Positions 659-21,667 of a DNA stretch of 64,000 bases are shown here, piece by piece; within the stretch, counting starts at the first letter, position 1; each line of letters opens with the position of its first letter. The stretch spans positions 373,659 through 437,658 of the forward strand of contig JAXGPP010000008.1 in the NCBI GenBank assembly GCA_040766885.1, written 5' to 3'. The notes beneath the pieces are model-generated. The model ran no database searches. It saw nothing but the letters and a program-made list of their open reading frames with translations, and was not told the DNA's origin. The DNA comes from Thermoguttaceae bacterium (GTDB lineage Bacteria > Planctomycetota > Planctomycetia > Pirellulales > Thermoguttaceae). A program made the position numbers and the translations under genes.

Positions 659-2599
659 ATGCATAACTCCCCTGATCTCACCTCTGCAGCCTCTGGTGGC
701 CATTGGTCGCCGACGTCCTGTGCAGCTATTACCGAGGTATTGTGGCTGGCGGGCCAAGCGACGGATCGAGGTGCGTTTCTCGGCACGGCTTTGCCGGTGG
801 TGGTTTCTGCAGTGGCGGCCGACTCGGCTGTGGTGATAACCGCGGTTTCGGGCCGGTGGAACATAGGGAGCCAGATCGGTCCGCGTCAGGTGCTTCCCAC
901 CGATCTCCTGGCCGATGCCCTCGACCGCGAGCAGTTGCGGACCGACGGCCTCTGGGTGGCGGCGCCGCTGCCTGGCGAGCGTGAGGCGGCCGAGTCGTTA
1001 GCCCTGCACTTTGGCAGCACGGCGGCCGCACGGCAGGGTGTGGAGATTGCGAGGGAACTCGTGCCGGTGTTGGCCGAAAGCCTGCGGGCGGTGGACCGGC
1101 GCCAGCGCGATTCGCGGCGACTTGAGCGCCTGGAGGCGATTCTGGAAATCGCCGGGCACTGGAACCGTTCCACGCAACTCGAACCGCTACTCATTGCCAT
1201 GGCTGAGGCCGCTACGCGGCTGTTCGGCGCCGACCGGGCAAGTATTTTTCTCTGGGACCGCGCCAGCCGCACTCTCGTCGGGCGGCCCGCTCTGGGCGCA
1301 CCGGGTGGCGAGCTTCGCATACCCGACAATCGCGGCATCGTCGGGCAGGTGATCCAATCGGGTGAGCCGCGGCGGGCCGACACCGCCACCGCCGCCAAAG
1401 AAATCGACCGCCAGGTCGATCAGAAACTGGGATACCAAACGCGGACTCTCCTCTGCGTGCCGCTCCGCAGCCGAGCAGGCGAACTGTTCGGAGCTTTCGA
1501 GCTCATCAACAAGCTATCGGGCAACTTCACGGCCGATGACGAGGAGGGGCTCATCGAGCTGGCGGACCACGCCGCCACCGCGCTGGAAAACGTCCGCGAT
1601 CGGGAACACCTGCTGCTCACGAGCCGACAGCTCAGCGAGCAGGCCGCCGGCAAGGTGCAGCTCATCGGGCAGAGCAAGGCGATCGATGCGCTGCGGTCGG
1701 TCGTCCGCCGCATCGCCGACACGGAACTGGCCGTGCTCGTCCTCGGCGAAAATGGCACCGGCAAAGAGGTGGTCGCGCAGTCCATTCATTACCTTAGCCG
1801 CCGACGGAATAAACCTTTCATTGCCGTCAACTGTGCAGCGATCCCCGACACGCTCGCCGAGAGTGAGCTGTTCGGCCATGAAAAAGGCGCCTTCACCGAC
1901 GCCCACGAGCCGCGGCTGGGCAAGTTCGAACTAGCCGCCGATGGCACGCTCTTTCTCGACGAGATCGGCGATCTCAGTCTCGCCGGGCAGGCCAAGCTCC
2001 TCCGCGTGCTTGAGGAGAAGGTTCTCGTCCGCGTCGGCGGCTCCCGACCGATCCACACCGACGCCCGTGTCTTGGCCGCCACGAACCAGGACCTTGCCGA
2101 AATGGTTCGGCAGAAGAAGTTCCGCGAGGACCTCTATTTCCGTCTCAACGTGGTGACGCTCGACATCCCGCCGTTGCGTGAGCGGCCGGAAGACATCATG
2201 CTATTGGCCGATTTCTTCCTGCAGGACTTTTGCCGCAAAGCCCGCCGGGCCGTTCCCCAATTCACTGCTGCCGCGCGCACTCGGCTTGAATCGCATTCCT
2301 GGCCGGGCAATGTCCGCGAACTGCGGAACCTCATGGAGCGGCTGGCGTACCTTTCTTCCGAGGACCGCATCGAAGCCAACGACGTGGCCTTTATTCTCTC
2401 TCCGCGCGGCGCCGCCGAGCCCAGTTTCCATGTCGACCGCCCCCTGGCCGACGCCACATCCGATTTTCAGGCCGAGTACATCCGCCGGGCAATCGAACGC
2501 TGCGGCGGCAACATGAGCCACGCCGCCACCCTCCTCGGCCTGCACCGCTCCAACCTCTATCGCAAGATGCGCCAACTCGGCATGCCCACTCCCAACTGA
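659..2599 (+). CDS. Sigma-54-dependent transcriptional activator (NtrC family): N-terminal GAF-like sensor region, AAA+ sigma-54 interaction domain, C-terminal Fis-type HTH.
   Basis: ORF of 646 aa. Motifs present: ELAVLVLGENGTGKEVVAQSIH (Walker A), ESELFGHEKGAFTDA (GAFTGA-type sigma-54 contact), DEIGDLSLAGQAKLLRVLEE and RLNVVTLDIPPLRERPEDI. The C-terminus has the Fis-like HTH NMSHAATLLGLHRSNLYRKMRQLG. The true start may lie downstream of 659. Confidence 0.8.
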   Translation: MHNSPDLTSAASGGHWSPTSCAAITEVLWLAGQATDRGAFLGTALPVVVSAVAADSAVVITAVSGRWNIGSQIGPRQVLPTDLLADALDREQLRTDGLWVAAPLPGEREAAESLALHFGSTAAARQGVEIARELVPVLAESLRAVDRRQRDSRRLERLEAILEIAGHWNRSTQLEPLLIAMAEAATRLFGADRASIFLWDRASRTLVGRPALGAPGGELRIPDNRGIVGQVIQSGEPRRADTATAAKEIDRQVDQKLGYQTRTLLCVPLRSRAGELFGAFELINKLSGNFTADDEEGLIELADHAATALENVRDREHLLLTSRQLSEQAAGKVQLIGQSKAIDALRSVVRRIADTELAVLVLGENGTGKEVVAQSIHYLSRRRNKPFIAVNCAAIPDTLAESELFGHEKGAFTDAHEPRLGKFELAADGTLFLDEIGDLSLAGQAKLLRVLEEKVLVRVGGSRPIHTDARVLAATNQDLAEMVRQKKFREDLYFRLNVVTLDIPPLRERPEDIMLLADFFLQDFCRKARRAVPQFTAAARTRLESHSWPGNVRELRNLMERLAYLSSEDRIEANDVAFILSPRGAAEPSFHVDRPLADATSDFQAEYIRRAIERCGGNMSHAATLLGLHRSNLYRKMRQLGMPTPN

Positions 2600-2755
2600 T
2601 CCCACCGATGGTGAGGTTGGCCAACCGCCGAACAAGAACCAGTTGCCGCAACCCGCCCGCCATCTTTCACTAAACCTCCCCGCTTCACCCGCCCGCCAAA
2701 AACCAAATCGAACCCTTGAGCGCCGCCCTGAAACGGGTATCATTAACCTTTTCCC

Positions 2756-2828
2756 GCCCCCTTAGCTCAATCGGCAGAGCATCTGACTCTTAATCAGAGG
2801 GTTGATGGTTCGAGTCCATCAGGGGGCA
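2756..2828 (+). tRNA. tRNA-Lys(CTT), canonical
   Basis: Acceptor GCCCCCT/AGGGGGC. D-arm TAGCTCAATCGGCAGAGCA. Anticodon stem TCTGA/TCAGA with loop CTCTTAA (CTT). T-arm GATGGTTCGAGTCCATC. Discriminator A; no encoded CCA. Confidence 0.85.
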
Positions 2829-3396
2829 CTCAACACAAAGCCTTTCGCAGAAATGATTTGCGAATGGCTTTTTCTGTGCGCTTGCCAAGGGCGTTGGATT
2901 CGCCATCTAATGCAGCTTGCCGATTGCCTGTCCGGAAGAGGGGGGCGGCAACTACATCCCGCCTGACTCCCGACGACGAACCAGCGCGGCACCGCGCCCC
3001 CTGTCGGTCTCCCCCTGCTGGAACTCGTGTCGTTGGATGCTGATCTCCCGCAGCTGCCGAAACTTGGCCCATCGTCGGCGGCAGAACGGCCGGATGATTT
3101 TCGTGCACCGGTGGGAATACACACCCGTCGAAGCGCGTCCTTATAAGAGGTGCAGCCGCTTCTGCACAAAAGCCGACGAACCTTTTCGTAGTTCGCGGCG
3201 TCTATCAGTATCAGACGGGTGGAGAGAGTTTCAGGCGATCCAAGAGACTGCGAGAAGGGTGATGACTTCGTTCCGGTTGGGTATTACGAGCGAACCAGGA
3301 TGCAAAGGGCGATATGCCGATCAACCGGCGAATACCCTGCCCATGCATCCTTTGCGCTTGTGACGCTTGACCTTACGTCAGCGAGGGAAATAGAAA

Positions 3397-3428
3397 CCCG
3401 GCGTCACAAACGACGCCGGGTTTTTTGT
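3397..3428 (+). terminator. Intrinsic (rho-independent) terminator: hairpin followed by a T-run, separating the upstream non-coding stretch from the tRNA array.
   Basis: CCCGGCGTC-acaaa-GACGCCGGG forms a 9-bp GC stem, followed by TTTTTTGTT. Confidence 0.6.
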
Positions 3429-3429
3429 T

Positions 3430-3502
3430 GGGCTGGTAGCTGAGACGGTGTAGCGCCTGGCTGAAGACCAGGAGACGAGGGTTCGATTCACCTCCCGGCC
3501 CA
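3430..3502 (+). tRNA. tRNA-Phe(GAA)-like with a non-canonical D-loop and T-loop
   Basis: Acceptor GGGCTGG/CCGGCCC (one G-U). Anticodon stem CCTGG/CCAGG with loop CTGAAGA (GAA). T region GAGG-GTTCGATTCA-CCTC, i.e. an enlarged loop. Discriminator A. Confidence 0.55.
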
Positions 3503-3560
3503 CTGCGATCCGCCTGCGCGCCACCAGTAATTTGGCCACGTGGAATGTGCGCGCCGACAC

Positions 3561-3634
3561 GGCTCGTTCGTCTATCGGTACGAGGACGCCGGCCCTTCAA
3601 GCCGGAAAGGCGGGTTCAACTCCCGCACGAGCTA
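3561..3634 (+). tRNA. tRNA-Glu(TTC)
   Basis: Acceptor GGCTCGT/ACGAGCT. Anticodon stem CCGGC/GCCGG with loop CCTTCAA. T-arm GCGGG-TTCAACT-CCCGC. Confidence 0.65.
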
Positions 3635-3744
3635 CTGAGGACCGAACGGGGCAAAGGAAAGGGTATCGCCTGGTCGTTGGGAGCACGTAGACGCAACCTT
3701 CGAGACCTGCCATCCCGACTGGATTGGCAACGACTTTGGCACAT

Positions 3745-3816
3745 GGTAGTCGAGGGCCGGTTGCCCGAACACGGCTGATAACCGCGTAGTGCTGAGTTCG
3801 ACTCTCAGGGCTACCA
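3745..3816 (+). tRNA. tRNA-Ile(GAT)-like
   Basis: Acceptor GGTAGTC/GGCTACC (one G-U). D-arm GGGC-CGGTT-GCCC. Anticodon loop CTGATAA on a 4/5-bp stem. T-arm CTGAG-TTCGACT-CTCAG. Confidence 0.55.
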
Positions 3817-3881
3817 CTGGACGCGAGGAGCAATGGCATGACACATAGACGACTCAAACGCATACATCCGGCCCGAATTTC

Positions 3882-3953
3882 GGGGTCGTGGTGCAATGGC
3901 AGCACACCGGACTTTTAATCCGGCAGGTGAAGGTTCAAGTCCTTTCGGCCCCA
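3882..3953 (+). tRNA. tRNA-Lys(TTT)
   Basis: Acceptor GGGGTCG/CGGCCCC. D-arm TGGTGCAATGGCAGCACA. Anticodon stem CCGGA/TCCGG with loop CTTTTAA. T-arm GAAGG-TTCAAGT-CCTTT. Confidence 0.65.
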
Positions 3954-3963
3954 CTCATGAGCG

Positions 3964-4036
3964 TGCAGGCCAAAAGAAGAGCAGATTCGTTGGAATAGCG
4001 TGGCCGGAAGTTCGACTCTTCCCGCGCCTGCTGCCA
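3964..4036 (+). ncRNA. Aberrant tRNA-like element: acceptor plus an extended T-arm, with an encoded 3' CCA, but no recognisable D-arm or anticodon arm.
   Basis: T-arm GCCGGAAG-TTCGACT-CTTCCCGC. The 3' side GCCTGCT-G-CCA pairs with the 5' TGCAGGC. The 32-nt body does not fold into D and anticodon arms. Confidence 0.35.
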
Positions 4037-4052
4037 ACGACATGTACAGAAA

Positions 4053-4125
4053 GGGATCAAGGTGTTAGCGGCAGCATAGCGGACTCTTAATCCGCGAGGT
4101 GAGGGTTCAAGTCCCTCTGGTCCCA
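4053..4125 (+). tRNA. tRNA-Lys(CTT), second copy
   Basis: Acceptor GGGATCA/TGGTCCC. Anticodon stem GCGGA/TCCGC with loop CTCTTAA. T-arm GAGGG-TTCAAGT-CCCTC. Confidence 0.7.
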
Positions 4126-4136
4126 CTGAGAGAATC

Positions 4137-4208
4137 GCACTGGTCGTCCAGTGGCAAGGACACCGCACTCGTAACGCGGCAACGTGGGTTCGACTCCCAC
4201 CCGGTGCT
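4137..4208 (+). tRNA. tRNA-Thr(CGT)-like
   Basis: Acceptor GCACTGG/CCGGTGC (one G-U). T-arm GTGGG-TTCGACT-CCCAC. Anticodon loop CTCGTAA on a 4/5-bp stem CCGCA/CGCGG. Confidence 0.55.
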
Positions 4209-4240
4209 CTTGATCTTTGACAATCCGACACGCTTGTAGC

Positions 4241-4311
4241 GCGCCCATGATGTAGCGGCAGCCTGCCGCCTTGCCGAGGCGGAAGTGCGGGTTCAACTCC
4301 CGCTGGGCGCT
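4241..4311 (+). tRNA. tRNA-Gly(GCC)
   Basis: Acceptor GCGCCCA/TGGGCGC. Anticodon stem CCGCC/GGCGG with loop TTGCCGA. T-arm GCGGG-TTCAACT-CCCGC. Confidence 0.65.
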
Positions 4312-4320
4312 CTTGATCGA

Positions 4321-4414
4321 CAGGACGTAGGAAAGTCTGGTATTCCGCCGGGCACCGACGCGCAGCGTTGGTTGCGGGCGCACGAGATCGCCGGTTCAAA
4401 TCCGGCCGTCCTGA
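4321..4414 (+). tRNA. Class-II-length (94-nt) tRNA-like gene; anticodon arm not resolvable
   Basis: Perfect 7-bp acceptor CAGGACG/CGTCCTG. D-arm GGAA-AGTCTGGTA-TTCC. T-arm GCCGG-TTCAAAT-CCGGC. The internal 40 nt does not give a canonical anticodon stem-loop. Confidence 0.4.
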
Positions 4415-4421
4415 CTCTCGT

Positions 4422-4496
4422 TGCGGTGGGACCCGTGCTGGTACGGGTAGGCGGCTGTTAACCGCCCCGACGCAGGTTCGATTCCTGCCACCGCAG
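4422..4496 (+). tRNA. tRNA-Asn(GTT)
   Basis: Acceptor TGCGGTG/CACCGCA. D-arm CCCG-TGCTGGTA-CGGG. Anticodon stem GGCGG/CCGCC with loop CTGTTAA. T-arm GCAGG-TTCGATT-CCTGC. Confidence 0.7.
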
Positions 4497-4559
4497 CCTT
4501 TGGGAGAAAACAGAAGGTCAAGCCGGACCACCGCCGCGCGGCAGCACCCGCGATGCCAC

Positions 4560-4616
4560 TACGTTCGAAGCGGGACGAGCTTTGCGGTCTGGAGGGTTCG
4601 GCTCCCTCACCTTCCG
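4560..4616 (+). ncRNA. Truncated tRNA-like fragment (T-arm plus a short acceptor-like helix)
   Basis: T-arm GAGGG-TTCGGCT-CCCTC. The flanking AAGCGGG ... CCGCTT could pair as a minihelix. No D or anticodon arms. Confidence 0.3.
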
Positions 4617-4624
4617 CTTGCGAC

Positions 4625-4697
4625 GCGCCCTTGGCCGATCGGCACGAGGCATCAGCCTTCCACGCTGAACAGGCGGGTTCGACTCCCGCAGGGCGCT
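4625..4697 (+). tRNA. tRNA-Gly(TCC)
   Basis: Acceptor GCGCCCT/AGGGCGC. Anticodon stem TCAGC/GCTGA with loop CTTCCAC. T-arm GCGGG-TTCGACT-CCCGC. Confidence 0.65.
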
Positions 4698-4713
4698 CTC
4701 GCAGCGACAATGA

Positions 4714-4784
4714 TCGGGGATCGGCTAGCGGCAGGCCATCTGGCTTTGAACCAGAAAGTGGAGGTTCGACCCCTCCTCCCCGAA
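4714..4784 (+). tRNA. tRNA-Gln(TTG)
   Basis: Acceptor TCGGGGA/TCCCCGA. Anticodon stem TCTGG/CCAGA with loop CTTTGAA. T-arm GGAGG-TTCGACC-CCTCC. Confidence 0.65.
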
Positions 4785-4822
4785 CATGCAGGCGGACGAC
4801 TGTGTCTCGATAGGCAACACAA

Positions 4823-4893
4823 TGCGGGATCATCCAACGGCAGGATGCGACGCTCTGAACGTCGTCATGTTGGTTCGAGTCCAGCTCCCGCAG
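4823..4893 (+). tRNA. tRNA-Gln(CTG)
   Basis: Acceptor TGCGGGA/TCCCGCA. Anticodon stem CGACG/CGTCG with loop CTCTGAA. T-arm GTTGG-TTCGAGT-CCAGC. Confidence 0.65.
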
Positions 4894-5003
4894 CTTGGTA
4901 TGACGAACAACAAAGTCCGTGAGGGCCTGGAAATCGCGAAACCCGAATAATGACGCGCAACTCTGTTGTTCATTATTCGTCATCCGAATTCCTGCTTCCC
5001 CTC

Positions 5004-5074
5004 GGGGTCATGGTCCAACAGGACGACGCTGGCTCCGCAAGCCAGAGATCCGGGTGCGATTCCCGGTGACTCCA
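5004..5074 (+). tRNA. tRNA-Ala(CGC)-like; the T-loop reads TGCGATT rather than TTC...
   Basis: Acceptor GGGGTCA/TGACTCC (one G-U). Anticodon stem CTGGC/GCCAG with loop TCCGCAA. T-arm CCGGG-TGCGATT-CCCGG. Confidence 0.6.
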
Positions 5075-5085
5075 CTTGAAAGCGC

Positions 5086-5157
5086 AGCCCCGTGGTCCAA
5101 CGGCCACGACGCCTGGCCTACACCCAGGAAACGATGGTTCAACTCCATCCGGGGCTA
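5086..5157 (+). tRNA. tRNA-Val(TAC)
   Basis: Acceptor AGCCCCG/CGGGGCT. Anticodon stem CCTGG/CCAGG with loop CCTACAC. T-arm GATGG-TTCAACT-CCATC. Confidence 0.7.
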
Positions 5158-5253
5158 CTGTGGCAATGATGGAGTAGCAGCGCTGAATGATGAAACGTGA
5201 GCTCCCCCTGGGCACTTCATCATTCATCCTTCGATATTCATCATTCTGCGTCC

Positions 5254-5328
5254 GTCCTCGTGGAGCAGTCCGGAGTGCTCGCCTGCCTGTCACGCAGGAG
5301 ATCGCGGGTTCAAATCCCGTCGAGGGCG
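5254..5328 (+). tRNA. tRNA-Asp(GTC)
   Basis: Acceptor GTCCTCG/CGAGGGC (one G-U). D-arm GAGC-AGTCCGGAGT-GCTC. Anticodon stem CCTGC/GCAGG with loop CTGTCAC. T-arm GCGGG-TTCAAAT-CCCGT. Confidence 0.65.
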
Positions 5329-5342
5329 CTTTCGACAGTAGC

Positions 5343-5417
5343 GGCGCGGTACGCAAACCGGCAAAGCGGCGAAGCTCAAATCTTCGTGACCTGCGGGTTC
5401 GACTCCCGCCTGCGCCA
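5343..5417 (+). tRNA. tRNA with a Leu anticodon (CAA) but a type-I body (short variable loop)
   Basis: Acceptor GGCGCGG/CTGCGCC (one G-U). Anticodon stem CGAAG/CTTCG with loop CTCAAAT. Variable region only ~6 nt. T-arm GCGGG-TTCGACT-CCCGC. Confidence 0.55.
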
Positions 5418-5427
5418 CTGAGAACAT

Positions 5428-5511
5428 GCGTCGGCTGGGCATCGGCGTGCCCAACTGCCTGTAAAGCAGCCAGCCCGCAAGGCTATGCAGGTTCAACTCC
5501 TGCCCGGCGCA
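5428..5511 (+). tRNA. tRNA-Tyr(GTA), class II with a long variable arm
   Basis: Acceptor GCGTCGG/CCGGCGC (one G-U). Anticodon loop CTGTAAA. Long variable arm CCAGCCCGCAAGGCTAT. T-arm GCAGG-TTCAACT-CCTGC. Confidence 0.7.
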
Positions 5512-5521
5512 CTTTCAACAT

Positions 5522-5594
5522 GGCCCGTTCATCTATTGGCGAAGGACATCGGCCCCTCACGCCGGAAAGGCGGGTTCGATTCCCGCACGGGCTG
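5522..5594 (+). tRNA. tRNA-Glu(CTC)
   Basis: Acceptor GGCCCGT/ACGGGCT. Anticodon stem TCGGC/GCCGG with loop CCCTCAC. T-arm GCGGG-TTCGATT-CCCGC. Confidence 0.65.
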
Positions 5595-5602
5595 CTGAGC
5601 AT

Positions 5603-5684
5603 GACCAAGTGGCGCAACTGGAAGACGCGCGACGCTCAGAACGTCGTGCCGCAAGGCATGGGAGTTCGAATCTCCCCTTGGTCA
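5603..5684 (+). tRNA. tRNA-Leu(CAG), class II
   Basis: Acceptor GACCAAG/CTTGGTC. Anticodon stem CGACG/CGTCG with loop CTCAGAA. Long variable arm TGCCGCAAGGCAT. T-arm GGGAG-TTCGAAT-CTCCC. Confidence 0.7.
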
Positions 5685-5793
5685 CTCTTGGTTACGTGGT
5701 TGGTTGTGCGGCACTTCCCTGCGGTCTCGACCGCGAAGCCGGGCTCGTTACACTCGCCCTTGCCTCATTCTCGGCCCGGCAACCAAAAGGCAT

Positions 5794-5863
5794 TGCAGGC
5801 GCGGCAGGTGCCGAACTGGCTCCCATAAGGCCGGTGCGCCCGGTTCGATACCGGGGCCTGCAA
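5794..5863 (+). tRNA. tRNA with a CAT anticodon (Met or Ile2), with an unusual CC at positions 32-33
   Basis: Acceptor TGCAGGC/GCCTGCA. Anticodon stem TGGCT/GGCCG (two G-U) with loop CCCATAA. T-arm CCCGG-TTCGATA-CCGGG. Confidence 0.55.
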
Positions 5864-5879
5864 CTTTGAAAAACACGCT

Positions 5880-5948
5880 GCGGGTGGGCGCAGGCTCAAC
5901 CGGGCTTCATAAGCCTGGAATGTCGGGTGCAACTCCCGGACCCGCCAC
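5880..5948 (+). tRNA. Second CAT-anticodon tRNA-like gene (69 nt, degenerate)
   Basis: Acceptor TGCGGGT/ACCCGCC (one mismatch). Anticodon region GGC-TTCATAA-GCC. T-arm TCGGG-TGCAACT-CCCGG. Confidence 0.45.
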
Positions 5949-5953
5949 TTGCG

Positions 5954-6027
5954 ACCGGGTACGCGAATTGGCATAGCGACGAGGTCGAGGGCCTCGTGTC
6001 TGTGGGTTCGACTCCCACTCCGGTCAC
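5954..6027 (+). tRNA. tRNA with a Leu anticodon (GAG) but a type-I body
   Basis: Acceptor GACCGGG/TCCGGTC (one G-U). Anticodon stem (A)CGAGG/CCTCG(T) with loop TCGAGGG. 5-nt variable loop. T-arm GTGGG-TTCGACT-CCCAC. Confidence 0.55.
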
Positions 6028-6040
6028 TGACTGCACGACG

Positions 6041-6111
6041 GGCTCGTGGTCCAACGGGACGACACCAGCGCGGCATGCTGGAAACGCGGGTTCAACTCCC
6101 GCCGGGTCCAT
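6041..6111 (+). tRNA. tRNA-Ala(GGC)-like
   Basis: Acceptor GGGCTCG/CGGGTCC (two G-U). Anticodon stem CCAGC/GCTGG with loop GCGGCAT. T-arm GCGGG-TTCAACT-CCCGC. Confidence 0.55.
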
Positions 6112-6117
6112 TGGTTA

Positions 6118-6215
6118 AAAGCAATCAGCTTTCAGCTTTCAGCTTTCAGCTTTCAGTGATGAGTGTAAATCGGACGGCTGAAAGCTGACCGCTGAGAGCT
6201 GATAGCTGCCCATAT
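6118..6215. repeat. Heptamer tandem repeat (TCAGCTT)x4 followed by its imperfect inverted complement, which could form a long hairpin
   Basis: The sequence is cagctttcagctttcagctttcagctttcag ... ggctgaaagctgaccgctgagagctgatagctg. Confidence 0.7.
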
Positions 6216-6290
6216 GGTGTTCGTGGTGTAGCGGTCGCTGCATGGCTGGCTGTGAACCAGCAGGTGGGAGTTCGACTCTCCCCGGGCACC
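6216..6290 (+). tRNA. tRNA-His(GTG) with the G-1:C73 hallmark
   Basis: An extra 5' G(-1) at 6216 faces discriminator C6290. Acceptor GTGTTCG/CGGGCAC. Anticodon stem GCTGG/CCAGC with loop CTGTGAA. T-arm GGGAG-TTCGACT-CTCCC. Confidence 0.75.
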
Positions 6291-6311
6291 CCTTTCGGAA
6301 AGGAGATCACG

Positions 6312-6908
6312 ATGGTCGCCAAGGTACTTGAGCAACCGACGCTGGTGCTGAACCGCAACTGGCAGCCGGTCCACGTGGCAACCGTGGAGCGTGCGCTCGT
6401 GCTGCTCTGGAACGACTCGGCCCGCGTGGTCGATCCGGCCGACTTTCAGCTCTACGACTGGGCCGACTGGTCGAAGCTGCAGCCTGGCCATGGCGAGGCG
6501 TTCGTCCAGGCGGTCCGGTTCAAGCTGCGCGTGCCGGAGGTCGTTGTCCTCAGCGGCTACGACCGCCTGCCGGTGGCCCGCGTGACGTTCAGCCGGCGCA
6601 ACATCTTCAAGCGCGACCACTACACCTGCCAATACTGTAGCGCCCGACCGGGCAGCGAGGAATTGACCGTGGACCACGTGGTGCCGCGGGCGCAGGGTGG
6701 TGTATCAAGCTGGGAGAACTGCGTGCTGGCCTGCACGGCCTGCAACAAGCGGAAGGCCGACCGCACGCCGGAGCAGGCGGGCATGAAACTTCGCAAGAAG
6801 CCGGTCCGCCCGGAGTGGAAGCCGCTTTACGCGGACCGCGAGGTGCGGATCGCCAGTTGGTCGAAGTTCATCAGCGAAGCCTACTGGAACGTGGCACTGC
6901 GCGAGTAG
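6312..6908 (+). CDS. HNH endonuclease embedded in the tRNA array
   Basis: Strong RBS GGAAAGGAG 6 nt before the ATG at 6312. The HNH motif reads DHYTCQYCSARPG ... LTVDHVVPRAQGG ... NCVLACTACNKRKADRT (His-Asn-His with CxxC/CxxC zinc ligands). Confidence 0.85.
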   Translation: MVAKVLEQPTLVLNRNWQPVHVATVERALVLLWNDSARVVDPADFQLYDWADWSKLQPGHGEAFVQAVRFKLRVPEVVVLSGYDRLPVARVTFSRRNIFKRDHYTCQYCSARPGSEELTVDHVVPRAQGGVSSWENCVLACTACNKRKADRTPEQAGMKLRKKPVRPEWKPLYADREVRIASWSKFISEAYWNVALRE

Positions 6909-6916
6909 TGCCGTTA

Positions 6917-6948
6917 CGCCCGGTCCCCGATCACTGATCGGGGACCAC
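6917..6948 (+). terminator. Perfect 11-bp GC-rich hairpin immediately after the HNH stop; no T-run (likely a terminator or RNA-processing hairpin)
   Basis: GGTCCCCGATC-actg-GATCGGGGACC. Confidence 0.45.
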
Positions 6949-6951
6949 TAC

Positions 6952-7021
6952 AGGAGTGTCCTCCTGGGAGAGGAAGCGGTCTCCAAAGCCGCCCGACAGG
7001 GTTCGAATCCTTGCACTCCTG
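6952..7021 (+). tRNA. tRNA-Trp(CCA)
   Basis: Acceptor AGGAGTG/CACTCCT. Anticodon stem GCGGT/GCCGC (one G-U) with loop CTCCAAA. T-arm CAGGG-TTCGAAT-CCTTG. Confidence 0.65.
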
Positions 7022-7047
7022 CTTTTGGAAGATGAGAACGAAGAACT

Positions 7048-7119
7048 GCCGGCGTGGCCGAACAGCGAGGCGGCGGTCCTGTAAACCGCACAATGCTGGT
7101 GCAATTCCAGCCGTCGGCT
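7048..7119 (+). tRNA. tRNA-Thr(TGT); T-loop TGCAATT
   Basis: Acceptor GCCGGCG/CGTCGGC (one G-U). Anticodon stem GCGGT/ACCGC with loop CCTGTAA. T-arm GCTGG-TGCAATT-CCAGC. Confidence 0.65.
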
Positions 7120-7187
7120 CTGAAAAGAGCTCTCAGCAGTCCTGATTTGAGCTGATCGCTGAGGGTTGGCGGCTCACGGGCCGCGAT

Positions 7188-7259
7188 GTCCCGATAGTGT
7201 AGCGGATCGCATCGGAGCCTCCGAAGCTCCAGGCCCTGGTTCGAATCCAGGTCGGGATA
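7188..7259 (+). tRNA. tRNA-Arg(CCG)
   Basis: Acceptor GTCCCGA/TCGGGAT. D region TAGTGTAGCGGATCGCAT. Anticodon stem GGAGC/GCTCC with loop CTCCGAA. T-arm CCTGG-TTCGAAT-CCAGG. Confidence 0.7.
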
Positions 7260-7301
7260 CTCAAGAGGGTGAGACATCGTTGTGCATCCACTCTACTGCT
7301 T

Positions 7302-7374
7302 GTCCTCGGAGTGTGCCGGATCAGCACGCGACCGTGCGAAGGTCGTAGACCAGGTTCGACTCCTGGCGAGGACG
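7302..7374 (+). tRNA. tRNA-Arg with an unusual GCG anticodon
   Basis: Acceptor GTCCTCG/CGAGGAC. Anticodon stem CGACC/GGTCG with loop GTGCGAA. T-arm CCAGG-TTCGACT-CCTGG. Confidence 0.6.
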
Positions 7375-7422
7375 TTTTCGAAGCGTGCGGCCACCGCGAA
7401 ACGGCGGCGGTCGCACGCGAAG

Positions 7423-7494
7423 GGCGCTGGAGCCAGACGGCAAGGCAACCGCCTGCAAAGCGGTTTTACGCGGGTTCGACTCCCGCCTGCGCCT
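7423..7494 (+). tRNA. tRNA-Cys(GCA)
   Basis: Acceptor GGCGCTG/CTGCGCC (one mismatch). Anticodon stem ACCGC/GCGGT with loop CTGCAAA. T-arm GCGGG-TTCGACT-CCCGC. Confidence 0.65.
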
Positions 7495-8075
7495 CTGAGG
7501 CGGTCCGACTGCCGGTTCAGACTACATCCGTTGAAAAGGTGAACCGGTCCGAACCAATTCTCGTCGGCCTTCCTCTAACAAAGATGTCCAACTGCCTGCC
7601 GGGACTACATTCACTGTAACTGAACCGTCTCGGCGAAAACTTCGTTGGGCGTTGTGAGAACACATCGGGCGACTGCCCGGTTGGAGTACATATCGGTTCA
7701 AATCCGGTCGCCCCGACTGAACACTTGCGCGAGCGGGGCGTGGCTCAACGGTAGAGCACCTCTGGCCACCACCTCGTCGCCTATTGAATACAGACCGACT
7801 GCCGGTTGGAGTACATGCCTGAAGAGCCGGGGGTTGTGGGTTCGAATCCCACCAGCGCCACTCACTCACTTGAGCGCTGTAGCTCAATGGTAGAGCACCG
7901 TAAAGTTCTCTGACCAACCCCTCGTCGGTCCTTTTGAGACAACAGGAGACACGACCCGACTGACCGAGTGGAGTACATCCACCATCACCAAGCCTGGGAG
8001 GCGGGAGCTTCCCAATACGGACGGATCTGCGGATTCGACCGTACGGCGCCTCTGCTCATCCCTCGTCGGGTCATG
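7495..8075 (+). ncRNA. Cluster of 4-5 repeated tRNA-like modules sharing a bipartite conserved motif; candidate Y-RNA (YrlA-like) genes directly upstream of the Ro60/Rsr gene
   Basis: The motif GACTGCCGGTTGGAGTACAT and its variants occur at 7507, 7591, 7671, 7797 and 7958. Each is preceded 25-37 nt upstream by CTCGTCGG-like boxes at 7561, 7640 (variant), 7772, 7921 and 8063. Units C (about 7734-7860) and D (about 7872-8050) carry canonical D-arms (GCTCAACGGTAGAGC and GCTCAATGGTAGAGC). Unit C has a T-arm GTGGG-TTCGAAT-CCCAC and an acceptor-like pairing GGCGTGG/CAGCGCC around a ~78-nt insert in place of the anticodon arm. Unit B (about 7675-7726) is an acceptor (TCGGGCG/CGCCCCG) plus T-arm (ATCGG-TTCAAAT-CCGGT) mini-structure. 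GGTCCGA occurs twice in unit A. Confidence 0.4.
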
Positions 8076-8091
8076 CTATGTGAAGGAGGTC

Positions 8092-9723
8092 ATGATGGCC
8101 AACAAGAACCTGTTCGCCAGCCTGAAGAGCCGTTTCGTCCGGGCCGATGCTCGGAATGAGGCAGGAGGCCGCGCGTACGCGCTGGAGCCGAAGCACGCCC
8201 TGGCGCAGCTTGCCGCCACGGGCTGCTTCAACGGCGCCTACTACGCCGGCGCCGACGAGCAATTGGCCACGCTGAAGACGCTCGTCGAGCAGGTGGCCGA
8301 CAATGCCTTCCTCGCGAAGCTGGCGGTTTACAGCCGCCAGCGGGCGATGATGAAGGACATGCCGGTGGCCTTGCTGGTCGTGCTGTCGAAGCGCGATCCG
8401 GCCTTGTTCCGCAAGGCGTTCAATCGCGTGGTGGACAACGGCCGTACCCTGCGCACGATGGTGCAATTCGTCCGCTCGGGCCAGTTCGGCCGCAAGAGCC
8501 TGTCGTACGCCCTGCAGCGGGCTGTCCAGCGGTGGCTGAACTCGGCTTCGGTCGAGAAGCTGCTGTCGGCCTCGATCGGCAACGATCCGAGCCTGCGGGA
8601 CGTGCTGCGGCTGGCGCGGCCGACCCCGGCCGACAACGCTCGGCGTGCCCTGTTCGGCTGGCTGACCGATAAGCCGGTTGAGAAGTGGGCGCCGGCCACC
8701 GAGGCCGACCTGCCGGAGGAGGTCCGTGCGCTAGAGGCGTTCCGCCAGGCGGAGACGGCCGAGGTGCAACTCCAGGCTCTCGGCAAGCTGCGCGCTCGCT
8801 GGGACCTCTTGGCCGATGCGGCCAAGGGTCCGGCGGTTTGGGCGGAGGTTGCCCGGAAGATGGGGCCGCAGGCGCTGCGGATGAACCTCAACACGCTGGT
8901 CCGCCAGGGCGTCATCGGCCCGGATGCCAAGGGAGAGATGGTCGACTATGTGGCGGCGCGGCTGGCCGATGCCGAGGAGATCCGCCGCTCGCGGCAGTTC
9001 CCGTACCAGTTCCTCGCTGCATACCTTAACGTCGGTGACGGCGTTCCGCAGAAGATCAAGTCCGCCCTGCACAAGGCGGCGGAGATCGCCTGCGGCAACG
9101 TGCCGGAATTGCCGGGTCCGATCGTGATCGGACTCGACGTATCGGGCTCGATGAGCATGCCGGTTACGGGTAACCGCGGCCGGGGCGCGACGAGCAAGAT
9201 GCGCTGCGTGGACGTAGCGGCCCTGTTCGCCGCTGCCATCCTGCGCCGCAATCCGGAGAGCGTGGTCATCCCGTTCGACACGTCGGCTTACGAGGCCAAG
9301 GTTGATCCGAGCGACTCGGTCCTCAGCCTGGCCGATCGGCTGGCCCGTTTCGGTGGTGGCGGCACGAACTGCTCGCTGCCGTTGGCCGCGGCCAATGGCT
9401 GGTACGCAAGCCGGAAGTTCGCCGGCTGTGTGCTGGTGAGCGACAACGAGAGCTGGGTCGGCACAGGCCGCGGCGGCTCAACGGCCGTCATGACCGAGTG
9501 GCAGGCGTTCGTCCGCAACCAGGTGCGGTTGCACGGCCGGGGTTTTTCAGGCCCGAAGCTGGTCTCGATCGACCTCCAGCCGTACACCACGACCCAGGCC
9601 CCGGAGCGCAGCGACATCCTGAACGTCGGCGGCTTCAGTGACGCCGTGTTCAGCGTCGTGGCTGCCTTCCTGGCCGGCGACGGCGGCCGGTTCGTCGCCG
9701 AGGTCGAAGCGGTCGAGCTGTAG
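8092..9723 (+). CDS. rsr: Ro60/Rsr orthologue: TROVE-domain ribonucleoprotein with a C-terminal von Willebrand A (MIDAS) domain
   Basis: Strong RBS AAGGAGG at 8083-8089; the ORF opens with a GTG at 8080 and in-frame ATGs at 8092 and 8095. The N-terminal ~350 aa has a Ro60-like pattern ([22 protein letters not shown] ... [33 protein letters not shown]). The C-terminus is vWA-like with [14 protein letters not shown] ... GGGT ... SDNESW. Confidence 0.7.
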
Positions 9724-20900: not shown

Positions 20901-21667
20901 GTCCTTTCCGCCAGGGACGGCATGAAGGGCCGAAACAGATCTCCCTCAGTTCCGGCTGCCATGAAACAGCCGGGTGTCCAAGACGACCCTCCACTCTCCC
21001 CCCAAAACATTCAACTCCGGCGGCTGCCACCTTTGTCGTCCCCGATAGGGCTGAATACTGCCGCTTAGCGGCAACTGCATGATTAGCCGGGTGTGCAGCG
21101 GAGCGCACGCCGCCACCCATCCCCATCGGCCTTGCCCGCCTCCGCTCATCCCTCTCCCAGCCGCGCACGCGGCGGCAGCCAATAGCCCACGGCGTAAGCC
21201 GTGGGACCCCGGCCCCGAAAGACGTTTTCTTCCCAAGCCCCATCAGGGGCGACAGCCTACACCGCCGAGCCGAGAACGCGCCGCGTGCCATGTCCTCGGC
21301 TCCGCCGTAGACATGCAGGAACCGCCGCGACCAACTCGCCGCGGAGGCTTTCAGAATCGACCTCCAACTCGCCGCCAGTCCGCTTGGGCAAGAGGAACAG
21401 AACCTTGCGCCAGGCCGTCGCGAAGGCCGCCGCCGTGACGGGGAAGTCTACTTCCGCATGGTTCGCGTTCTCCAGGTAGACGTACTGCCATCCCCGTTCG
21501 TGATCCCCCGAGTGTCTTACACCGGTGTAATAGCCCGTCAAGAGAGCCCCGGGCGTGTTCTGCCGCCGCGTTGGGCGGCATAGCACGCCGGCCCCGTGGG
21601 GCGTTGCTCCGCAACTGTTATCGTAGCCGTGACTTGTGCGGGCACGGACGAGAAGTCCTGGGAGTGT

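Follow-up and report, generated by a model that had tools for sequence, protein, structure and literature searches.

An HNH nuclease gene kept at a tRNA-His/tRNA-Trp junction of long tRNA arrays in Planctomycetota

Long supernumerary tRNA arrays, and HNH nuclease genes that travel with them, are already known from cyanobacteria, mycobacteria and phages (PMC8421152, PMC5966550, PMC12803027). In a 64,000-nucleotide stretch of a Thermoguttaceae genome (the window), an HNH gene lies inside such an array, raising the question of whether it is a mobile passenger that arrived recently or a working part of the operon. A sequence-only reading of the locus had favoured the passenger, with a mobile, phage-derived origin. 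Here, we find that the gene holds a fixed place, as a protein cistron, in a probably supernumerary L-array that is widespread in Planctomycetota, and that it did not arrive by recent insertion.

The nuclease gene and the tRNA array around it

The array contains ~28 tRNAs in 4.07 kb, all on one strand, a density of ~6.9 tRNA genes per kb, which places 3430–7495 among the L-arrays, or tRNA array units, defined (Tran et al. 2016, PMC4758250) as having at least 20 tRNA genes and at least two per kb. Its gene order is syntenic with that of arrays at loci L001 to L040. Most array tRNAs score 40–62 bits versus 73 bits for the stand-alone tRNA gene, with several below the tRNA threshold, and the tRNA-Lys(CTT) of the array shares only 62% identity with its stand-alone counterpart 1.3 kb upstream; anticodons duplicated outside the arrays were found at loci L006 and L011. 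The tRNA-Trp(CCA) that follows the nuclease gene falls below the Rfam tRNA gathering threshold and best matches the tRNA-Sec model (30 bits), and it is kept in 38 loci, with compensatory D-stem changes. On the plus strand within the array, including the 5′ spacer of the nuclease gene, a scan for sigma-70-like promoters returned none, planctomycete promoters being poorly known, and a terminator scan inside the array returned no real terminator. Control by sigma-54, for which an activator gene lies upstream, was rejected, as the motif TGGCAC-N5-TTGC occurred at chance level (71 matches versus 71.6 expected, none convincing ahead of the array) and the activator is not conserved beside arrays.

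Table 1 Features of the array locus, in window coordinates
Feature	Position	Strand	Details
Leader ORF, 33 aa, MTSFRLGITSEPGCKGRYADQPANTLPMHPLRL followed by stop	3262..3363	+	TGA stop 3361-3363 inside antiterminator box
Antiterminator box TTGTGACGC	3358..3366	+	Complementary to GCGTCACAA (3401-3409), the terminator 5′ arm and loop start
Terminator-like hairpin and T6 (3421-3426)	3397..3426	+	Stem 3397-3405 with 3412-3420
Long tRNA array with embedded HNH gene	3430..7495	+	27 ARAGORN tRNAs and one Rfam-only (5004-5074)
tRNA-His(GTG), 5′ neighbour of HNH gene	6217..6292	+	ARAGORN; Rfam tRNA model 51.2 bits
5′ UTR of HNH gene, 19 nt	6293..6311	+	Sole content RBS AAGGAG (6300-6305)
HNH nuclease CDS	6312..6908	+	ATG 6312, TAG 6906-6908; 198 aa, intact
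GC-rich hairpin in 3′ UTR, 11 perfect bp	6922..6946	+	Loop ACT (3 nt); MFE -22.8 kcal/mol
tRNA-Trp(CCA), atypical, 3′ neighbour of HNH gene	6952..7022	+	ARAGORN
YrlA-like (Y RNA-like) element, weaker	7666..7786	+	Rfam RF02553 35.2 bits, E=4.8e-5; below gathering score 69
YrlA-like (Y RNA-like) element, stronger	7792..7934	+	Rfam RF02553 54.5 bits, E=1.2e-10; below gathering score 69
Rsr (Ro60 ortholog), TROVE and vWA domains	8080..9723	+	Pfam TROVE E=2.9e-13, vWA_Ro60 E=6.9e-12, above cut-offs

The initial description of a ~200-aa HNH nuclease with Cys pairs and a ribosome-binding site, set between tRNA-His and tRNA-Trp, was borne out by the 198-aa protein, its Cys4 site, the AAGGAG 6 nt before the ATG and the flanking tRNA genes, and the profile search suggested along with it gave matches above cut-off to both Pfam HNH PF01844 (residues 106–151, E=1.2e-14, 54.6 bits, cut-off 21.4) and HNH_5 PF14279 (E=3.7e-13, 49.6 bits, cut-off 27.5). 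PHROG 16726 (‘HNH endonuclease’) covers nearly the full length, residues 8–188 (E=2e-34). Across an alignment of 67 homologs, the zinc cysteines C106, C109, C141 and C144 are invariant or nearly so, as are D121-H122, N136 and N145, with His122 as the catalytic histidine. The protein comprises a C-terminal HNH domain with the Cys4 zinc site and an N-terminal domain (~residues 1–95), which is probably beta-grasp-like, and its closest HNH relatives are DNA nucleases, namely the HNH domains of Cas9 and IscB and the Gme nicking endonuclease. More specific identities were tried and rejected. The JGI name McrA denotes a 5-methylcytosine-specific restriction enzyme, but EcoKMcrA matched only residues 113–147 (E=0.017), and the N-terminal domain, where a modified-DNA-binding domain would be expected, had no match. 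An RNA-guided nuclease of the IscB/Cas9 type was likewise discarded, as the equivalog model NF040563, which consists of RuvC, bridge helix and HNH and requires a whole-protein match, reached 55 bits against a cut-off of 175 on the HNH segment only. PADLOC matched the protein only through the generic HNH core (PtuB, Cas9 and type II restriction enzymes).

Conservation at one tRNA junction and relatives in other phyla

Of 80 species-level planctomycete loci, ~45 have the nuclease gene within an array, and most of these place it in one shared His-[HNH]-Trp slot, which recurs in syntenic arrays of 25–40 tRNAs. tRNA-His is the upstream neighbour in most array loci, and the spacers from it to the HNH start are purine-rich and 16–38 nt long (21 loci). 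All copies are intact, ~198 aa long and 64–97% identical (64–83% among in-array copies), with no degraded copies seen, and at the sequence level the gene, held at this single inter-tRNA junction, is under purifying selection (dN/dS 0.11–0.30 at dS 0.55–1.6). Because it occupies the same spot in many planctomycetes, we regard it as a long-kept part of the operon rather than a recent parasite, and the idea of a recent or sporadic insertion does not stand.

The suggestion that related arrays might lack the gene proved correct. Anchoring arrays on tRNA-Trp revealed five with the nuclease gene (L166, L170, L172, L086 and L087) and five syntenic ones with a direct tRNA-His/tRNA-Trp junction (L167, L168, L169, L171 and L180), a 5:5 count from a small, biased sample, the tRNA-Trp pattern scans having given seven metagenome and four viral loci. 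Such presence/absence polymorphism at exactly one junction is expected of a homing endonuclease, whereas the patchy distribution and frequent decay also expected of one were not seen, all copies being intact. At ~30 of the 80 loci, including all Isosphaeraceae, the gene has no tRNA within 10 kb; these array-free paralogs (64–73% identity) lie in variable, ordinary chromosomal neighbourhoods, and several genomes carry both array and array-free copies. By sequence inspection, neighbours of array-free copies appear CinA-like or purine-nucleoside-phosphorylase-like. One contig holds two arrays 48 kb apart, and a single related array, L007, contains insertions of IS110 and Mu-type transposases.

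Outside Planctomycetota, Anabaena All8564 is homologous over its full length (BLASTP, residues 3–167, 31% identity, E=1e-29), with L6, N16, R27 and A28 of the N-terminal domain invariant in the joint alignment, and sequence comparison places the two proteins in one family over both domains; the planctomycete protein exceeds All8564 by 20 aa and has an N-domain insert and a more extended C-terminal tail. The all8564 gene immediately precedes 24 tRNAs encoded on its own strand, and the HNH family also adjoins tRNA arrays on cyanobacterial plasmids. All8564 is conserved beside cyanobacterial L-operons, and chloramphenicol co-induces all8564 and the trn operon (Santamaria-Gomez et al. 2021, PMC8421152); all8564 is also among the most upregulated genes, with RtcB and slipin, in a TrcR deletion mutant (PMC10272220). 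Like All8564, the planctomycete nuclease is highly conserved within its own phylum and encoded on the same strand as a long, probably supernumerary tRNA array that it adjoins. Unlike all8564, which stands upstream of its array, the planctomycete gene sits inside, in the fixed slot, and the array is chromosomal.

Mycobacterium tRNA array units also embed HNH genes (Morgado & Vicente 2018, PMC5966550; Yano et al. 2026, PMC12803027). In these units one conserved HNH gene lies within ~26–32 tRNA genes that duplicate the chromosomal tRNAs in divergent form, and the planctomycete arrays resemble them in the single embedded HNH gene and in divergent, probably redundant tRNAs. By contrast, the mycobacterial plasmid HNH proteins match only residues ~60–173, leaving most of the N-terminal domain uncovered, and the mycobacterial arrays reside on plasmids and phages, unlike the window array.

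HNH genes as passengers of phage tRNA clusters, as the sequence-only reading had it, are indeed found within this family: in Tunturiibacter phage Tunturi_5 a member lies between two tRNA-Thr genes, 22 nt after one and 7 nt before the next, and Synechococcus phage S-CBWM1 carries a member in a tRNA-rich region. At ~15 of 80 IMG/VR loci with a homolog, low-GC viral contigs included, the HNH gene is in or next to a tRNA cluster; many phage homologs lie away from tRNAs, for example in Atu_ph07 and Gordonia phage Phendrix. One two-domain HNH family connects the arrays of Planctomycetota, Cyanobacteria and an acidobacterial phage, and the data already point to an enrichment of the family near tRNA arrays beyond chance in several phyla. 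This recurrence in phage tRNA clusters agrees with the proposed mobile, phage-derived origin, but no integrase or phage gene lies beside the window array, and the array itself may or may not derive from a phage.

Probable leader switch, 3′ hairpin and proposed role of the nuclease

Upstream of the array, a terminator-like hairpin ends 3 nt ahead of tRNA-Phe, the first array gene. A simple terminator scan missed it, though it was read directly from the sequence and folds at -19.3 kcal/mol in RNAfold; the entire leader (3340–3429) folds with z = -4.64, and the terminator element is kept in ~26 loci. An ORF ends at the antiterminator box in all 25 leaders examined, and the peptides share the C-terminal motif [AG]-N-[TSM]-...-[YH]-P-L-R-L-stop. 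We call this ORF coding because of the peptide motif, the synonymous third-position changes, the in-frame indels and the retained stop codon; codon-position entropy was indecisive (16.6, 17.5 and 18.5 for positions 1, 2 and 3). The duplex of box and terminator arm has a predicted energy of -9 to -22 kcal/mol versus -5 to -9 kcal/mol with shuffled boxes, and the pairs are compensatory, GTGACGC/GCGTCAC in the window being replaced by GTAACAC/GTGTTAC in L048 and L057 with the stop codon kept (TAA). The window box can alternatively form a local hairpin, which bears on the direction of the switch.

The segment 3262–3426 has the anatomy of a ribosome-mediated attenuator: it contains a leader ORF, its antiterminator and terminator pairings exclude each other, and the terminator lies right against the first gene. 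A leader-peptide terminator/antiterminator switch probably gates the whole operon. As in the trp, his and pheA attenuators, a short ORF has a stop codon overlapping a segment that can pair with the terminator 5′ arm. Unlike in those leaders, there is no codon run for one amino acid and the peptide sequence itself is conserved, and the genes under control encode tRNAs and a nuclease rather than biosynthetic enzymes. The array apparently relies on this attenuator, in contrast to the TrcR operator repeats of Anabaena, and in the literature searched we found no precedent for a leader peptide combined with a tRNA array.

At its other end, the nuclease gene is followed by the perfect 11-bp hairpin described earlier, which is real (z = -4.26, with 0 of 200 shuffles folding as well); its loop is ACT rather than the ‘actg’ first reported, and instead of following the stop codon immediately it is separated from it by 13 nt (6909–6921), ending 5 nt before tRNA-Trp. 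A hairpin is present in all 26 short HNH-to-tRNA spacers, with differing, covarying stem sequences (median 12 bp, median z -4.3). Of the proposal that it could terminate transcription or mark a processing site, the second half is the likelier. An intrinsic (Rho-independent) terminator was rejected, the U-tract being missing (window tail ACTAC) and the terminator scan not having listed the hairpin; because a T-rich tail is usually absent (at least four T in 3 of the 26 spacers only), a 3′-end cap or a processing or stability element is more likely. In L167, an array without the HNH gene, tRNA-Trp is likewise preceded by a hairpin, and the element may be part of the tRNA spacer rather than of the nuclease mRNA.

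Taking these observations together, we consider it probable that the nuclease gene is a fixed, co-transcribed cistron of a leader-gated L-array, whose mRNA is freed by tRNA processing. Judging from the anatomy, the gene would have no promoter of its own and would be transcribed along with the tRNAs. Its mRNA would be excised from the precursor as the tRNAs are processed, the 3′ end of tRNA-His lying 19 nt before the ATG, with RNase P cutting at the start of tRNA-Trp, 5 nt beyond the hairpin, and the GC hairpin capping the mRNA 3′ end against exonucleases. The leader switch would allow the operon to be made when ribosomes stall, much as translational stress is reported to induce the trn operon and all8564 in Anabaena.

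For the activity of the protein, we tentatively propose a DNA endonuclease of SegB-like homing ancestry, which may act at tRNA-gene DNA and promote recombinational maintenance, rearrangement and spread of the arrays as their long-retained cargo, although this could well be wrong. T4 SegB belongs to the GIY-YIG rather than the HNH enzymes. Like it, the planctomycete nuclease is a free-standing endonuclease among tRNA genes, with presence/absence polymorphism at an inter-tRNA junction seen in the present arrays as well. As cited in PMC8421152, SegB is a homing endonuclease of the T4 tRNA gene region, with preferential inheritance of that region as the proposed model. Points for a homing-type role are the polymorphism at the tRNA-His/tRNA-Trp junction, the paired arrays 48 kb apart, the family member in a phage tRNA array and the precedents in PMC8421152 and PMC5966550; points against it are the phylum-wide conservation, the array-free paralogs and the phage homologs away from tRNAs. 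Unlike usual homing endonucleases, the planctomycete protein is conserved far more deeply, and homing is a candidate role for the family.

Other explanations account for parts of these data. The HNH-less arrays with a direct junction, the family member within the tRNA array of an isolated phage, the IMG/VR homologs in or beside tRNA clusters and the transposases in L007 would all suit a selfish, free-standing homing endonuclease that had entered only recently an array which is itself a mobile, phage-derived island. We find this very improbable, however, given an identical slot in ~45 species-level genomes, the dN/dS range above with no degraded copies seen, array flanks in the window free of integrase and phage genes, and a cyanobacterial ortholog co-regulated with a host stress regulon. 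Little credence is also given to an ordinary planctomycete housekeeping DNA nuclease, acting in repair or recombination, that stands in a tRNA operon by chance in some lineages. It would explain the ~30 loci without nearby tRNAs, all Isosphaeraceae among them, the genomes holding both copies and the very high conservation of the protein, but the linkage recurs with unrelated arrays (on cyanobacterial plasmids, in a phage and in low-GC viral contigs), making chance placement unlikely.

Two further readings concern what the enzyme acts on and when. It is doubtful that it acts on RNA, either in processing tRNA precursors or in degrading canonical tRNAs while sparing the divergent array tRNAs for replacement or as a toxin-antidote device; the closest HNH relatives are DNA nucleases, and array-free paralogs exist. 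A stress-induced or defence DNase, by which an attack on translation by phage, toxins or antibiotics would call up back-up tRNAs together with a nuclease against invading DNA or for cell arrest, draws on the discussion of tRNA arrays as anti-defence or back-up devices (PMC12803027; PMC11555353), on the induction of the Anabaena ortholog by translational stress and on the resemblance of the HNH domain to PtuB and other defence HNH domains. We nonetheless consider it unlikely, as the PADLOC matches are restricted to the generic HNH core, partner defence genes such as ATPases and methylases are not conserved nearby, and no specificity domain was recognised.

RNA genes and other neighbours of the array

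Downstream of the array, the window resembles the bacterial Rsr-Y RNA (YrlA) module in having a TROVE and vWA protein that is directly preceded, on its own strand, by a tandem pair of putative YrlA-like RNAs, and differs from the known module in following a tRNA array with an embedded HNH gene. Neither RtcB nor RtcR was seen beside the Rsr module in the window. Rsr homologs occur downstream of or inside arrays at 10 other loci, and the array sits in a setting of translation and RNA repair, the operon having a simple candidate control element (leader peptide and terminator/antiterminator) and, as its tail, a probable RNA-quality-control unit (YrlA-like RNAs and Rsr).

A broader reading, which we hold to be quite unlikely, is that the array is a self-contained translation-rescue operon switched on by a leader-peptide stalling sensor, with a nuclease that is no DNA homing enzyme but targets tRNAs or tRNA genes, so that tRNAs which are damaged or canonical are removed or replaced and the divergent ones of the array are spared. 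If so, the array tRNAs would take over together with Y RNA/Rsr, joined in relatives by EF-Tu and an RNA ligase, and the operon would serve to replace the tRNA pool or would form a toxin-antidote pair that also secures the persistence of the array in the genome. The planctomycete arrays offer a clean system for asking whether ribosome stalling induces L-arrays, and whether the nuclease targets DNA at tRNA genes or RNA.

The identified neighbours of the array in the window are the sigma-54 activator, Rsr, a GH127 hydrolase and a penicillin amidase. In the neighbour clustering, this high-GC DNA gave many clusters of spurious ORFs lying over tRNAs or the nuclease gene, and those kept were the candidate SPFH-like cluster, Rsr and a few lineage-specific ones; PADLOC gave no hits for Rsr or the candidate SPFH-like protein. 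This candidate SPFH/band-7-like gene, recognised by sequence inspection, is conserved near planctomycete arrays, in a likeness to the TrcR regulon of Anabaena with its slipin.

The HNH gene and its tRNA array

On sequence grounds, the gene at 6312-6908 encodes a genuine HNH nuclease and is conserved as a cistron of a planctomycete L-array (a long supernumerary tRNA array). The sequence-only reading had placed an HNH nuclease gene between tRNA-His and tRNA-Trp, which the ORF, its RBS and its flanking tRNAs confirm. The profile search it had called for matched both HNH PF01844 (E=1.2e-14) and HNH_5 (E=3.7e-13) of Pfam at residues 106-151, and a PHROG labelled 'HNH endonuclease' covered nearly the full protein (residues 8-188, E=2e-34). 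Across 67 aligned planctomycete and cyanobacterial proteins, C106, C109, C144, D121, H122 and N145 were invariant, as were L6, N16, R27 and A28 at the N-terminus, with C141 and N136 nearly so. The N-domain as sole query retrieved 917 representative clusters, nearly always lying N-terminally in proteins of 170-250 aa. The labels McrA (JGI) and IscB/Cas9 (NCBIfam) were based on the HNH core only and were rejected.

ARAGORN predicted 28 same-strand tRNA genes in the run 2756-7495. The first, tRNA-Lys(CTT) at 2756, is a canonical stand-alone gene with its own promoter-like site and terminator, scoring 73 bits against the Rfam tRNA model and lying 600 nt before the array, which therefore begins at tRNA-Phe (3430). 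The array Lys(CTT) at 4053, 1.3 kb away, is 62% identical to it. Array tRNAs mostly scored 40-62 bits, and those for Trp, Ile, Asn, Tyr, Met and Arg(GCG) fell below the Rfam threshold, the sub-threshold set including a 95-nt Gly(ACC) and the short-D-arm Trp. Arg(GCG) has an anticodon unusual in bacteria. The inter-tRNA spacer 6120-6205 forms a long hairpin of tandem heptamer-like repeats (AGCTTTC x4 ... GCTGAAAGCTGA; −53.7 kcal/mol, z = −7.6); similar hairpins follow the HNH gene in three related loci (L007, L014, L038), and they are possibly a processing or stability signal or the relic of a repeat element.

Features of the tRNA array, its surroundings and related loci (window coordinates unless a locus handle is given)
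Feature	Position	Strand	Remarks
Sigma-54 activator gene	659-2599	+	GAF, AAA+, HTH_8; upstream of array
Stand-alone tRNA-Lys(CTT) unit	2716-2870		has own promoter-like site and terminator
Leader ORF	3262-3363	+	33 aa; conserved peptide end [AG]N[TSM]..[YH]PLRL-stop
Box TTGTGACGC	3358-3366	+	holds leader TGA stop codon
Terminator hairpin + T6	3397-3426	+	ends 3 nt before tRNA-Phe
Seven ARAGORN tRNAs below Rfam threshold	3745-3817, 4321-4415, 4422-4498, 5428-5512, 5794-5864, 6952-7022, 7301-7375		Rfam
Extra tRNA	5004-5074		Rfam match, missed by ARAGORN
tRNA-His(GTG)	6217-6292	+	ARAGORN; 5' neighbour of HNH ORF
RBS AAGGAG	6300-6305	+	direct sequence reading
HNH ORF	6312-6908	+	ATG start, 198 codons
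GC hairpin	arms 6922-6932 and 6936-6946	+	11 perfect pairs
tRNA-Trp(CCA)	6952-7022	+	ARAGORN; 3' neighbour of HNH ORF
YrlA-like RNA (Y RNA-like), weaker	7666-7786	+	35 bits, E=5e-5, below Rfam gathering score
YrlA-like RNA (Y RNA-like), stronger	7792-7934	+	54.5 bits, E=1e-10, below Rfam gathering score
Rsr/Ro60 gene	8080-9723	+	directly downstream of tandem YrlA-like matches
Complete EF-Tu, RNA-ligase-1-like, weak HEPN-like, IS110 and Mu-type transposases (listed together)	L006:6270-7442; L006:10647-11294; L001:11572-12639; L007:2098-3279, 5839-7071		related loci

Relatives, history and possible role of the nuclease

L-arrays were defined as long tRNA arrays spreading by horizontal transfer and occur in seven phyla, Planctomycetes among them; in cyanobacteria, a gene for an HNH 'homing endonuclease' (Anabaena all8564) is conserved upstream of the L-operons and is induced by chloramphenicol together with the trn operon (Santamaria-Gomez et al., PMC8421152). 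In a TrcR deletion mutant, all8564, RtcB and a slipin are among the most upregulated genes (PMC10272220). In Anabaena, All8564 (178 aa) is encoded on the delta plasmid and is followed directly by 24 tRNAs on the same strand, a pattern repeated on a Tolypothrix plasmid (HNH gene, then 16 tRNAs), and the cyanobacterial family is 74-94% conserved across orders. All8564 aligns with the window protein at 31% identity over residues 3-167 (E=1e-29), and the window HNH is, at family level, an ortholog of the HNH linked to cyanobacterial arrays. All8564 lies upstream of its array, the window gene inside. In Mycobacterium tRNA array units, HNH is the most widespread CDS, and M. avium arrays hold one embedded, conserved HNH (PMC5966550, PMC12803027), but these mycobacterial proteins align to residues ~60-173 of the window protein only. 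The HNH gene/tRNA array association was already known; the novel points are the planctomycete clade, a fixed slot inside the array, the spread of the two-domain family across phyla and into phages, and an inferred attenuator.

Relatives of the protein number in the thousands, the best 120 clusters (~198 aa, 71-97% identity) all being from Planctomycetota (Thermoguttaceae, Pirellulales). A one-genome-per-species scan gave 557 relatives, the best 80 of which were taken for locus analysis. In ~45 of these 80 loci the gene lies within a same-strand array of 10-40 tRNAs, in the kept order ...Ser(GCT)-Arg(TCT)-His(GTG)-[HNH]-Trp(CCA)-Thr(TGT)-Arg x3-4-Cys(GCA), so that a sporadic insertion is not borne out. 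Only a purine-rich RBS occupies the 16-38 nt between tRNA-His and the start codon, and homologs compared with the window copy gave dN/dS of 0.11-0.30 at dS 0.55-1.6. Another ~30 of the best 80 loci (64-73% identity), including all Isosphaeraceae, have no tRNA within 10 kb, and their neighbourhoods are ordinary and variable (e.g. CinA-like and purine-nucleoside-phosphorylase-like genes, judged by sequence). Array-linked and array-free copies coexist in some genomes and are interleaved in a neighbour-joining tree. One contig (CAWDRV010000004.1) carries two near-complete arrays 48 kb apart, each with an HNH gene (L001 and L003), so that the entire unit is duplicated within one genome. Two contigs with planctomycete-type array and HNH (L005, L018) have been assigned to MAGs that bear the labels Methanoregulaceae archaeon and Dechloromonas, probably through binning contamination rather than transfer.

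The atypical array tRNA-Trp served as an HNH-independent anchor for finding arrays. In this small sample of loci, five arrays carried the HNH gene (L166, L170, L172, L086 and L087) and five syntenic ones did not, tRNA-His directly abutting tRNA-Trp with a spacer of 4 nt in L168 and L169, 29 nt with a hairpin inside in L167, 69 nt in L171 and 161 nt in L180; related arrays without HNH, a check proposed earlier, thus exist. Such empty junctions are the expected trace of a homing-type history, and deletion fits them equally well. Full-length homologs are also carried by isolated large phages. In Tunturiibacter phage Tunturi_5, the gene lies within a 13-tRNA cluster, 22 nt past tRNA-Thr(CGT) and 7 nt ahead of tRNA-Thr(GGT), and a gene for a tRNA splicing ligase follows downstream. 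The copy of Synechococcus phage S-CBWM1 has a tRNA-rich setting, and those of Atu_ph07 and Gordonia phage Phendrix lie away from tRNAs. About 15 of 80 IMG/VR homolog loci have it in or beside tRNA clusters, some on low-GC contigs. We tentatively rank first, at somewhat less than even likelihood, a homing-derived, array-maintaining DNA endonuclease; the alternatives are an HNH nuclease directed at RNA or tRNA, one with a defence role and one with a housekeeping role.

RNA signals of the array

The sequence-only reading described a perfect 11-bp hairpin immediately after the HNH stop codon. The pairing is real (MFE −22.8 kcal/mol, z = −4.26, 0/200 shuffles folding equally well), but the loop is ACT, 3 nt rather than 4, and the hairpin lies 13 nt from the stop codon. 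All 26 loci with a short post-stop spacer have a GC-rich hairpin (median 12 bp, median z −4.3) ending 1-10 nt ahead of the next tRNA, and the stems vary in sequence between clades while pairing is kept (e.g. GGTCCCCGATC, GCCCCCGGTCC, GCTCCCGGTC, GCAGAAGCTCAG). Because a T-rich tail follows in only 3 of the 26 and the window tail is ACTAC, the hairpin lacks the U-tract of an intrinsic terminator, contrary to one of the two earlier suggestions, that it could end transcription. From its position, it would instead remain as an mRNA 3'-end cap once RNase P cuts at tRNA-Trp. Since the HNH-less array L167 also has a hairpin ahead of tRNA-Trp, the structure may belong to the tRNA spacer.

The leader ahead of tRNA-Phe is conserved in about 25-26 planctomycete array loci, among which its ORF varies by synonymous substitutions and by indels that keep the frame. 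The box can pair with the 5' arm of the terminator hairpin, to which it is complementary; this pairing is supported by compensatory changes, one of which (GTAACAC/GTGTTAC) retains a stop codon, and its duplex energies are well below those of shuffled boxes. The leader looks like a ribosome-sensing attenuator for the tRNA operon; the literature search found no paper in which a tRNA array is tied to a leader peptide. On the model of trp-type attenuators, masking of the box by a ribosome at the leader stop codon would permit termination, whereas ribosomes stalled or absent on the leader would allow antitermination, a direction that is provisional because the window box can alternatively form a local hairpin.

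Neighbouring genes

In the window, the two YrlA-like matches and then Rsr come after the array, on its strand. Rsr homologs lie downstream of or within arrays in 10 other loci, and in one of the related loci (L055) between tRNA-Arg(GCG) and tRNA-Cys. A conserved gene of ~369 aa, absent from the window, lies downstream of or within arrays in 17 loci (e.g. L003:11922-13028); it looks like a candidate SPFH/band-7 (slipin-like) protein on inspection, and PADLOC gave no match for it. In the Anabaena TrcR mutant, a slipin is upregulated along with the trn operon (PMC10272220). A sigma-54 promoter was looked for before the window array and not found, and the sigma-54 activator is not conserved next to arrays in related loci. 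Further genes are embedded in related arrays: a complete EF-Tu, a weak HEPN-like match, an RNA-ligase-1-like gene that directly follows HNH, and inserted IS110 and Mu-type transposases. An Acido-Lenti-1 RNA match unrelated to the array lies at 21159-21205 on the minus strand (42 bits, Rfam gathering score 37).
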